DNA of 64,000 nucleotides. It comes from an uncultured Erysipelotrichaceae bacterium. Lineage in GTDB: Bacteria > Bacillota_I > Bacilli_A > RF39 > UBA660. A program made the translations under genes and the position numbers. Shown here piece by piece: positions 14,536 through 22,605 of this stretch; the first letter of the stretch is position 1; every line of letters starts with the position of its first letter. The notes beneath the pieces were generated by a model. That model worked only from the letters and a program-made list of their open reading frames with translations, was not told the DNA's origin and did no database searches. The DNA lies in NCBI GenBank assembly GCA_902788975.1, contig CADAMI010000012.1, positions 5,148 to 69,147 on the forward strand, in the 5' to 3' direction.

Positions 14536-17500
14536 ATGAATAAGTTGAAAGCATTTATTAAACAACATAAATATTCTCTTTTAATAGCAGTATTCCTTAT
14601 TGCTATGCTTTTGACGTGGAATTTTATGAATTCTTTTAGTGAAACGACTACTGATAGTGCTTGGGATGGGGTAGTTGCTAGACAATTTACAAGCGGAACT
14701 GGCTCTACTGATAACCCTTATGTAATTGCTAATGCCTCTGAATTTGCTTATTTCAAATCATTACTTGAGGGTGAAGATGCAAGTTTGTATGCTCACAAAA
14801 ACTACAAATTAGTTGGAAGTTTTAATTATGGTAAATACGATTTAGCAATTAACAACAAAGTACCTTTTAGTGGTACTATTGATGGCTGTGGTAATAAAAT
14901 ATATAATGCTTCTTTATCTAATATGTTGTTTAATATTCTTGATGGTGCAACAATTAAGAATTTGCAACTAGTTAGTCTTTCTTATACTTTAATCAATGAA
15001 ACTGGTGCTATTGTTGCTAATGATATAAAGAATTCAAACATTGAAATGTTGCTTGTCAATTGTGATGTTAATGTACAAAATGATTCAACATTTGGTGGTT
15101 TAGTATATAATTCGTCTGATACGACATATAAAAATATAATTATTGATTACAATATTGATTCTGAAAATGAAAATATATTTAATTTTGCTTATACCATGGA
15201 TAATGATAATGGTGCTAATATTTTGATTAAAGATAATAATTATCAAAATACATATTGTGAAACGAATATTAATTTTAATAAATTTAATATTAAAGATGGA
15301 AATATTAATTTAATTGATGTAGATAATTTGAATGAATTTGTTTCTGATAATTATAAGATAATAATTAAAAATAATGAATTTAATTTTGAAGAGATAACTA
15401 ATGATTTAAATAATGAATCTCAAGCAGATGATAGTTCTGAACATCCAAATGAACATAGTAATATGTTAAAATCAGTTGTAAGAAATTCAACTATTACGGT
15501 ACATGATCAAGGAATTGACGGAACTACTATTTATATTAATAATTTATTATCTGATTCTAATTATTTTAAAGGCTTAAATCATACGGAAGTTTTAAGTACA
15601 AGTATACCAAGTGGGGTAAGTACTGGTTATTATGATGATAGTAATTTAGTTAAAGTAGCTGTTGTTTATGATGGTACTGATATAAACAATGCTAATTTAG
15701 TTGGAGCAGTATCTCCTATTAATAGTGAGAATGTTAATAAATATGTGTATTATAAATATTATCCATTAGAAAGAACTTCATCTGGTGATTTGGCAACGGA
15801 TAATAATGGTAATAATTATATAAGAATAGAACTTATTGATAATCCATTTAGTAAAAGACCTTATGTTAGTACAACTGAGTATGGTTTTAATGGATGGGCA
15901 TGTAATCAAGGAAATAGTTCTGATGGTGTTTGTGAAAGTGCAACTTTTAGTTTTGATAATGATATTTATACAAGATATGTCGATATAGCAATAGATGGTA
16001 GTTCAGAATTTACGTTGTATTTAAATGCAAATTGGATAAATGCTGATGTTGTTACAAGTTACTATAATATTAGTAGTTTTAATTCTATGACAATGGAAAA
16101 TCTTCCTACTCATCCTGTTCAATATGTTATTCATCATATTGCTAGTCCTCATTGGAAACAAAACTATACGACTATGGAATACTATCAATCTTATAATCGT
16201 TATAGTCAAATGCCTACTACTACAGGATATTATTATAAAACTAGTACTACATCAACAACTTATTATAGACTTAGAAATGGTAATCGTACTTGTCAAAGAA
16301 CAACGTGTTATGTATATAGGGCAAATACAAGTGGTATTACAAGCGGTTCATTATATGAAGGTGGAACTGTTGAATTTTTCCCAAATTATAATGCGTCATC
16401 AAATACAATCTATTCGACAACTATTTCTGATTATAATACTACTTATATGAATTTAGTAGATGATCCAAATGGAACAATCGAATATGATGAAACAGCTACA
16501 GCTAATAGAATGATTTTGGGAGATGGAAGTACCGCCGGAAGTTATTATTATAAAGTAACAAATCCAACTGCAGCAATGATTAATACTGGAGAATATTATA
16601 ATTCAGATGGTAGTGTTTGTACTAATGCTAATAATTGTCGTACGGCTTATAAATTAATTCAATATAATGATACAGTTACTAATAGTGATGGAACATCCAT
16701 TTATAATATTAATGCAGATGGTAATGGTAATATTATTGACCAAGATAATTATTATTATTTAGTTACCAGAGATACGAATATCTTTAGATATACAAGTACA
16801 ACGGCTTTAGAAATGGATTATTTGCAAGTTAATAAGCCATTTACGGTTACTGGAACAGCGGTGAATGGAACTAGTGTTACTGGAGTATTGGAATATCCAA
16901 CTGGTTGGGGTTGGGATTCTTCTGCTGAAGATTTTACGGCAAGTAATGATATTGTTATTGAAAATATTAAAATATATGGTCCAGGTGGGACTGGTTCTGA
17001 TAATTTAGGAATTGGTGATGATGATAGTTATACAAGTTATGTAATTTATGCTAATTCTAAAAATTTAAAAATAGGAAGAAATGTTGTTAGTTCTAGAGAT
17101 AGTTCTTATTTGGTTGCTAATGGTATTTTTAATGGAACAAATACAAGTGTAACAGGTAGATTTAAAGTAATTGTAGAAAGTGGAATTTATTCAGCTTTTC
17201 ATACTGGCCCTGTCGATCCATATGGAAGAGATGGTAGTAGACAACACAATACGACAACAAGTACATATAATGCTTTAACTGTTTTAGGAAGTGACTACGA
17301 TCGTGTTAAAGTAGATAATAGTAAATTAAAATTCTTTATCGGCTTAGATGGCATGTCTGGTGGATACAACAATGCTTTAAGTGGTAACTTTATAGCTTTT
17401 ACAACCGTTAAAAGCGGAATGTATGGGTTTAATGCTGATGGAACACCTAGTACCGACTATACAGCTGGTTTATATCTTGGAGGACATGGTTATACAGATT

Positions 17501-22605: not shown

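Follow-up and report, generated by a model that had tools for sequence, protein, structure and literature searches.

A 64,000-nucleotide stretch of DNA from an uncultured Erysipelotrichaceae bacterium (contig CADAMI010000012.1; the whole stretch is called the window here, G+C content about 27%) carries a giant open reading frame (ORF) encoding 2689 aa. Its product is a real protein, most likely an exported structural protein of an uncultured rumen or gut bacterium of the Bacilli (Erysipelotrichaceae-like). We propose, with moderate confidence, that the giant protein is a surface or fiber stalk, in which an N-terminal signal or anchor is followed by a variable head, a β-solenoid rod, and a conserved base of immunoglobulin-like (Ig-like) domains. 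The ORF is uninterrupted and occupies positions 14536..22605, including the stop codon; all coordinates are window positions, and features lie on the forward strand unless stated otherwise. It starts with ATG, and the sequence TAGGAGAG, which resembles a ribosome-binding site, is found eight bases 5' of the start codon. An identical protein is present in the public collection (P0001), where its 90% cluster has 21 members.

Rung Array and Predicted Structure

The central feature of the giant protein is a canonical array of YGGGN rungs at aa 1024–1842 (17605..20061), supported by a strict motif, a hidden Markov model (HMM), DNA-level sites, and the structure model. Between aa 1036 and 1831 there are 26 matches to the strict motif [YF]GG[GSNA]. 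The rung HMM, trained on 25-residue windows around the strict-motif sites, finds 28 units over the whole array, with the consensus N-[VI]-x-[IV]-N-G-G-T-[VI]-G-N-[VI]-[YF]-G-G-G-N-x-[AS]-G-T-[VT]-T-x-[ST]. Fourteen contiguous rungs (aa 1344–1690) follow each other at a spacing of 24–26 aa, and toward both edges of the array insertions widen the spacing to 27–54 aa. The original prediction, made by a model from the sequence letters, described near-regular 25-residue units filling the central third of the protein. This description is borne out, as the array spans 30% of the protein, and the array itself stands; the predicted number of about 30 rungs was a slight overcount.

The periodicity is also visible in the DNA. 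In-frame TWYGGNGGN sites are 72–81 nucleotides (nt) apart in the core of the array, in agreement with the 70–81 nt period noted earlier. The sequence TATGGTGGCGG, with up to two mismatches, is found 28 times in the window (20 of these within 17641–19907), compared with an expectation of 3.7, and none of 100 shuffled sequences reached this number. The earlier claim of tandem DNA repeats, in turn, has to be abandoned. Tandem Repeats Finder detected no tandem DNA array in the giant gene, the nucleotide identity between rungs averages 46% with a maximum of 68%, and no exact repeat of 24 nt or more is shared among the rungs. Therefore, the array is not a DNA tandem repeat, and length variation of the slippage type can be rejected.

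The structure of the rod region was predicted with AlphaFold2 from an alignment of 41 sequences (the query segment and 40 relatives). The model of aa 760–1900 is all-β, with a mean predicted local distance difference test (pLDDT) score of 87.9 and a predicted template modeling (pTM) score of 0.78; throughout the rung array the means of 10-residue blocks are mostly 94–98. Each regular rung is modeled as a strand of 8 residues and one of 6, separated by a short turn and followed by a loop of ~7 residues; we read the rung as these two longer strands plus a [YF]-G-G-G-N turn. The canonical array is preceded by strand-rich sequence (aa ~800–1023; 16933..17604, boundaries approximate), in which the model places strands from aa ~836 onward at pLDDT values mostly between 55 and 94. 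These strands suggest irregular turns ahead of the canonical rungs, and the segment is thus probably part of the solenoid. On the C-terminal side, the modeled solenoid ends in a transition at aa ~1843–1890 (20062..20205, boundary approximate).

Taken as a structural model, these results strongly support a rigid β-solenoid rod at aa ~840–1880 with a core of 26–28 rungs. The repeats had been likened to β-helix rungs with disorder as the opposite outcome, and the high-confidence all-β solenoid model decides this point in favor of the likeness. The Tyr/Phe and the two Asn residues of each rung probably stack from rung to rung. With about 40 turns of ~4.8 Å each, the predicted rod would be ~18–20 nm long.

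The rod is followed by a predicted array of β-sandwich (Ig-like) domains at aa ~1891–2689 (20206..22602), which is among the most conserved parts of the protein. The C-terminal 809 residues (aa 1881–2689) were modeled as an all-β series of β-sandwiches with a pLDDT of 86.1. Foldseek searches of PDB with this model returned multidomain Ig-like strings with E-values down to 4e-12, including integrin legs, complement MG domains, an S-layer protein, an adhesin extender, and RbmA. We read these matches as indicating a stalk of Ig-like domains and nothing more specific. The regions flanking the rungs had been described as nonrepetitive; they do lack sequence repeats, but the description overlooks their predicted structure, since the protein is strand-rich from aa ~840 and ends in a β-sandwich series.

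For the rod, the top Foldseek matches in PDB were EtpA, IgA1 protease, the antifreeze protein MpAFP, tapirin, and EspC, all of them β-helical. None of these matches is significant, the best having E = 0.07 (8vbb), with 3h09 and 9mne also among the top entries. Against BFVD, three matches had E ≤ 0.001 at template modeling (TM) scores of ~0.2 or below; the best (E 5.6e-7, TM 0.18) leads to long viral fiber proteins carrying Peptidase_S74.

Family Relationships

No Pfam or NCBIfam model matches the giant protein as a whole, and four sub-segments searched against Pfam at E ≤ 10 gave no match. PDB sequences searched by phmmer with the protein, and with a profile of its family, likewise gave none. 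The rungs do not belong to the repeat classes that were considered. The period of 24–26 aa, the lack of GGxGxD, and the lack of a Pfam match separate them from RTX repeats; the unit consensus has no 5-aa periodicity and no Pfam match that would point to pentapeptide repeats. For Pmp/POMP repeats, PF02415 was not found in Pfam at E ≤ 10 on aa 1001–1900, and TIGR01376 was not found on the full protein. Pfam also gave no PbH1 or PF13229 (Beta_helix) match. Neither an autotransporter barrel nor a two-partner secretion (TPS) domain was detected with Pfam or NCBIfam, and the C-terminus is modeled as β-sandwiches instead. The exclusion of RTX, pentapeptide, and Pmp repeats in the original prediction is thus upheld by the HMM searches, and no cataloged adhesin family was matched.

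A word-indexed search identified at least 190 relatives of the giant protein. The 120 listed are 2157–3241 aa long and almost all full-length. All relatives are named only "hypothetical protein", and those with source names come from metagenome-assembled genomes (MAGs) of "Bacilli bacterium". Among species-representative genomes, the closest loci are in three MAGs, one of a goat-omasum "Bacilli bacterium" and two of rumen "uncultured Erysipelotrichaceae". A homologue of the C-terminal region with 45% identity is also present in a bin labeled "uncultured Muribaculaceae" (Bacteroidota; L006, CAZTRB010000002.1), which could reflect misbinning or cross-phylum transfer.

One cataloged family, PF05342 (GLUG/Peptidase_M26_N type), touches some of the relatives. 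Peptidase_M26_N was found below threshold in one relative (P0025, 25.0 bits versus a cutoff of 27.7), and a precomputed PF05342 flag is carried by six of the 120 relatives among the matches listed; the giant protein itself has no PF05342 match in the Pfam scans. In another relative, P0091, an insertion of ~110 aa (…VVEYTKRAPGNSPRSNKPTYAEITVTVNNTTDLLIDEWEVVLNIPNSTVY…) breaks the rung array. By its sequence the insertion looks like a β-sandwich of the carbohydrate-binding module (CBM) type, and Pfam finds nothing on P0091.

Right-handed β-helices include many pectate lyases and glycoside hydrolases. A role as an enzyme acting on polysaccharides, or as a scaffold that binds carbohydrates, would fit the rumen or gut source, the occurrence of tapirin and a GH55 glucanase among the weak fold matches, and the CBM-like insertion of P0091. 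We nevertheless consider such a role very unlikely. No polysaccharide lyase, glycoside hydrolase, or CBM family was matched in the query or in three relatives, and the Foldseek E-values of the enzyme matches exceed 1. Moreover, the conserved rung residues (G, N, Y/F, V/I) are structural, and the rungs are very regular and lack the long loops from which enzymatic β-helices build their active sites.

Variation of the Giant Gene

The N-terminal head (aa ~36–799; 14641..16932) is the least conserved part of the protein, as judged from the conservation profile and module identities, and it has no Pfam match. In the profile of the aligned family, conservation is highest in the rungs and the C-terminal base and lowest at aa 150–350.

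How this variation arises is illustrated by a second locus, L007, from a different rumen metagenome. Its DNA identity to the window is 97–100% at 4576–14000, falls to 61–82% at 14000–20000, returns to 98–100% at 20000–24000, and is 80–91% at 24500–31900. Relative to L007, the window thus contains a hyperdivergent allelic cassette (14490..20000; identity 61–82%, flanks 97–100%). On the left, the cassette breaks off within the final ~14 codons of the upstream 395-aa gene, whose product equals its L007 homologue save for the last ~14 aa; on the right, the breakpoint is near codon 1820, where the rung array ends. Thus, a head-plus-rung cassette of ~6 kb has been swapped by homologous exchange within a cluster that is otherwise ~99% identical. 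The high identity of the cluster next to neighboring genes at 80–91% suggests that the cluster has recently passed horizontally between related species, whose genomes are ~88% identical elsewhere.

The same modular behavior is observed across the family. Alleles with heads of 49–56% identity share a C-terminal third that is 99% identical, and head types and base types assort independently. Relative to the query, P0037 has a head of 33% and a base of 72% identity, and P0043 has a head of 56% and a base of 47% identity.

The number of rungs behaves differently at short and long distances. In the 90% cluster of the query, 12 of the 15 listed members (of 21) are exactly 2689 aa long and the rest look truncated, so the rung number is stable among close strains. 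The strict motif count ranges from 24 to 39 across the 120 relatives listed. Block duplications are found in two relatives: P0002 repeats a unit of 193 aa (81% identity), and P0017 repeats one of 121 aa (93% identity); a direct offset scan found none in the query itself. Differences in rung number between distant alleles are explained by duplication of blocks of 4–8 rungs. The gene had been thought a likely site of length variation through its DNA repeats, with copy number among strains as the proposed check. The repeats are too diverged for this and the length is constant in most close relatives; the copy number does vary, but only between distant alleles. The giant protein therefore diversifies by cassette exchange and block duplication, and not by repeat slippage. 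We take the cassette pattern as a sign of selection exerted by phages, by host immunity, or by the range of substrates.

Occurrence of the Rung Type

The distribution of the rungs outside the family was examined by phmmer with a 14-rung segment (aa 1340–1700) against 1.84 billion cluster representatives at 50% identity. At E-value cutoffs of 1e-3, 1e-10, and 1e-30, the search returned 1401, 656, and 213 proteins, respectively. The single-rung HMM of the giant protein undercounts rungs in divergent relatives, and motif counts were used instead. The best 150 matches comprise at least three architectures, of which the first is the family of the giant protein itself and the third has a different conserved C-terminus.

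In the second architecture, the proteins have 1400–7891 aa and 40–127 rungs, and the first rung immediately follows a signal peptide with the ending "...AQ", whose sequence looks Bacteroidota-like. In the five members measured (P0128, P0260, P0203, P0131, P0147), the rungs cover ~0.8–0.96 of the protein. One such protein, P0231, ends in a sorting domain of the type IX secretion system (T9SS; Por_Secre_tail, PF18962, 41 bits). No Pfam match was found in P0159, P0175, P0180, P0185, and P0217, and no NCBIfam match in P0175, P0180, P0185, and P0255. Many of the proteins P0127–P0256 end in "...NVYGGGNMGEVNGNPRVIVNGK", without a recognizable sorting domain. These rung-rich proteins share the YGGGN rung type with the giant protein, at 35–42% identity over hundreds of residues. 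They differ from it in lacking the N-terminal "SFSE..WDG" and the C-terminal ending of the giant family, as judged from their termini.

The rung type is common in metagenomes and has no Pfam or NCBIfam model and no sequence relative in PDB; a full-text literature search for "YGGGN" gave no relevant paper. With a family model for the rung, a large body of "dark" sequence from gut and rumen could be annotated, and the carriers of the rung include some of the largest proteins in metagenomes.

Gene Cluster and Synteny

The giant gene is part of a conserved cluster. Immediately relevant is a signal peptidase I of the SipW/archaeal type at 10604..11131, which matches TIGR02228 with 78 bits (cutoff 51.85) and is syntenic in L007 and in another metagenomic locus, L001. 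It is followed by genes for a 216-aa small secreted protein with the motif NTFAWF (11118..11768) and a highly conserved 201-aa small secreted protein with the motif DTYAKY (11765..12370, reverse strand). The 216-aa protein has no family match and is syntenic in both loci. The 201-aa protein has 345 homologues of 58–100% identity, all of them unnamed, and its gene is the only one of the cluster on the opposite strand. Because it is so well conserved, we regard it as a candidate major subunit, possibly expressed from its own promoter. Next come a syntenic 237-aa small protein with an N-terminal membrane or signal segment and no family match (12591..13304) and the 395-aa secreted protein with the motif STYAWF (13318..14505), located directly 5' of the giant gene.

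The giant gene had been placed at the end of the operon. This is not the case, since it is followed by a conserved 40-aa ORF, MEEKLKEITNQELIQIYRLVLEHLEYLNNEKSKVEEVDKK (22614..22736), and a gene for a 508-aa Lys/Glu-rich protein (22733..24259), the start of which the 40-aa ORF overlaps by ATGA. The short ORF has been called as a gene in both other loci, with 43 aa in L001 and 40 aa in L007. The 508-aa protein has no signal peptide and no family match and is found at the same place in both loci; it could be a cytoplasmic partner or regulator.

An upstream sub-cluster (3439..6958) contains two further SipW-type peptidases and three small secreted proteins without family matches (3980–4546, 5432–6037, and 6041–6958). 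One of the peptidases (4556–5431) matches TIGR02228 with 67 bits, again above the cutoff of 51.85, and Peptidase_S26/S24; the other (3439–3990) is below the TIGR02228 cutoff. The two matches above the cutoff confirm the earlier assignment of SipW to the operon. Between the two peptidase sub-clusters are three conserved genes (6970..10599; 325, 509, and 369 aa), in the same order in L001 and L007. The 509-aa protein is a McrB-like AAA+ protein with an N-terminal membrane segment, whose AAA domain is matched by the PADLOC candidate PDC-M26A (3.8e-34), and the 369-aa protein contains DUF2357 (4.6e-11). Since both genes of this McrB-like AAA+/DUF2357 pair (7951–10599) keep their position in L001 and L007, the pair may be part of the appendage cluster and not a defense pair inserted into it.

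The gene order is kept in both loci; the giant protein of L001 is 53% identical to that of the window. The 5' part of the shared order consists of genes for proteins of ~305–321 aa and ~325 aa, the 507–509-aa AAA+ protein, the DUF2357 protein, and a SipW-type peptidase. The 3' part encodes four small secreted proteins, one of them from the opposite strand, followed by the giant protein, the 40–43-aa ORF, and the 508-aa protein.

Two observations concern the surroundings of the cluster. An AbiD-family abortive-infection protein (1214–2149; PADLOC AbiD, 1.5e-56) is encoded just 5' of an HtrA-like protease and the first SipW gene. Downstream, at 24339–29534, are an Amidase_3 protein with four LysM domains, a 122-aa ORF (25632–26000), a response-regulator/HD-domain protein (26001–27635), and a hybrid histidine kinase (27639–29534), with domains called on the L007 homologues. 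These downstream genes could link cell-wall remodeling and regulation to the cluster.

The neighborhood also bears on a phage-derived or defense-linked origin, in which the giant protein would be a tail-fiber-like receptor-binding protein in a mobile or prophage-like island. Its variable region behaves like a receptor-binding cassette, AbiD, the McrB-like PADLOC candidate, and the amidase-LysM protein are nearby, and the ~99% identity of the cluster compared with ~88% in the flanking DNA suggests recent transfer. The weak BFVD matches to Peptidase_S74 fiber proteins (E 5.6e-7, TM 0.18) point in the same direction. However, no capsid, portal, terminase, tail, or integrase gene was found among the cluster ORFs scanned or the neighbors in L001 and L007. 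In addition, the giant protein has a Sec-type signal or anchor and is encoded in a conserved operon with signal peptidases, and each of the loci examined contains a single, syntenic member of the family. We therefore judge a phage origin to be highly improbable; like the enzymatic role, it is an unlikely explanation.

N-Terminal Segment and Proposed Orientation and Role

The N-terminal segment read from the sequence (aa 1–35; 14536..14640) is a signal peptide or a membrane anchor. It consists of a basic n-region and the hydrophobic stretch LLIAVFLIAMLLTWNFM, followed by NSFSE. The motif [ST][FY]S[ED] after the hydrophobic region (h-region) is kept across the giant family, with TYSEF or SYSEF in distant members. 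In the small proteins, motifs of the type T[YF]A.[FY] were recognized by eye after the hydrophobic core (STYAWF, NTFAWF, DTYALF, and DTYAKY). TasA and camelysin have GTWAAF and GTFAYF, respectively, at the same position. The conserved motif of the giant protein suggests, and does not show, processing by the same peptidases as the small secreted proteins, and we infer that its N-terminal segment is cut by a SipW-type peptidase.

In the stalk model that we prefer, the giant protein would leave the cell through Sec, with processing by a SipW-type peptidase encoded in the cluster. The conserved C-terminal base would dock on the cell envelope or on a fiber of the small subunits. The solenoid would then hold the variable head away from the surface, toward ligands, phages, or host factors. 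Signal cleavage, display on the surface or on a fiber, and the arrangement with the base attached and the head exposed are the parts of this model that we infer.

Several points weigh against this arrangement. The N-terminal segment could be an uncleaved anchor, which would place the head at the membrane and the Ig-like array distally. No cell-wall binding module (LPXTG, SLH, LysM, or choline-binding) was found in the giant protein. Its C-terminus, ...MIGEINQYIVIK, has no LPXTG, and none is present in the last 60 aa of any top match of the rung search. There is no annotated homologue. Finally, sequence searches did not link the small neighbors to TasA or to other fiber subunits. The seven small proteins have no Pfam or NCBIfam match, including the Peptidase_M73 and SipW-substrate models, and phmmer against PDB gave no match for the small neighbors. 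The family profile of the 201-aa protein has no PDB match, and hhalign gave a probability of 0.1 against a TasA sequence. No NCBIfam match to a TIGR04088-like SipW-cognate signal motif was obtained for the giant or the small proteins, even if a similar motif is seen by eye. Of the earlier description of the neighbors as TasA-like, only the resemblance of the signal motif remains. The small proteins may still have a TasA-like fold.

These neighbors are central to a second explanation, in which the giant protein would be a subunit that serves as tip, cap, or anchor of a TasA-like donor-strand fiber, analogous to TapA/TasA. After SipW cleavage, its N-terminus ETTTDSAWDGVVA... would act as a donor strand into the filament of small proteins. 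Three SipW-type peptidases in the cluster, at least six small secreted proteins whose h-region is followed by a motif of the T[YF]A.[FY] type, the [ST][FY]S[ED][FT] of the giant family at the same place, and the strict synteny with small secreted proteins are all in line with this proposal. Strand complementation of the TapA type is reportedly established for B. subtilis. SipW-dependent BsaA polymers are established in C. perfringens (PMC7395162). The small proteins, however, have no sequence relation to the TasA, camelysin, or BsaA families, and the exchanged cassette extends only into the very end of the upstream gene, giving no hint of covariation with a partner subunit. The proposal is attractive and draws on the operon context and a short motif; on balance we consider it not very likely.

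A more far-reaching picture can be drawn by combining these elements, and we regard it as doubtful. The cluster would encode an undescribed surface-appendage system of gut and rumen Bacilli, in which SipW cuts both the small subunits and the giant protein, and the giant protein joins a donor-strand fiber by its new N-terminus. The AAA+/DUF2357 pair would serve assembly and not defense, and the YGGGN rung would be a cross-phylum building block for rods, used also in T9SS cargo of Bacteroidota. The link to SipW clusters in uncultured Bacilli provides a testable handle on how their surface is built.

Comparison with Known Systems

The tapA-sipW-tasA and sipW-bsaABC operons resemble the present cluster in having a SipW-type peptidase beside several small secreted proteins, which are described as β-rich, and signal peptides with an aromatic-Ala-x-aromatic motif. 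The present cluster differs from them in its three peptidases and in small proteins without detectable homology to TasA or Peptidase_M73. In the study of the BsaA operon, the genes described are limited to those for small putative secreted proteins and for a two-component system (PMC7395162). Neither operon is known to encode a giant solenoid protein, a membrane AAA+/DUF2357 pair, or a 508-aa partner.

As a molecule, the giant protein resembles β-helical secreted adhesins of Gram-negative bacteria (EtpA/FHA of the TPS type and autotransporter passengers such as IgA1 protease, EspC, and pertactin), in which a long β-solenoid stalk with rungs of ~20–25 aa is formed by a single chain. It differs from these exoproteins and autotransporters in that it has no TPS domain, no translocator barrel, no outer membrane to cross, and no sequence or HMM relation to them. 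Its rung motif is [YF]GGGN plus GGT[IV], and the Foldseek matches to them are not significant. Pmp repeats of chlamydiae and Bacteroidota (PF02415, TIGR01376) are similarly Gly/Asn-rich β-helix rungs of ~25 aa, and GGT[IV] resembles their GGA[ILV]. In contrast to Pmp proteins, the giant protein is not matched by the Pmp HMMs at E ≤ 10 on the rung region, its GGT[IV] stands 4 residues before [YF]GGGN, and it carries no autotransporter barrel. Giant β-solenoid surface proteins are a known kind, and what is new here is the rung type, the link to a SipW cluster, and the exchange of cassettes.

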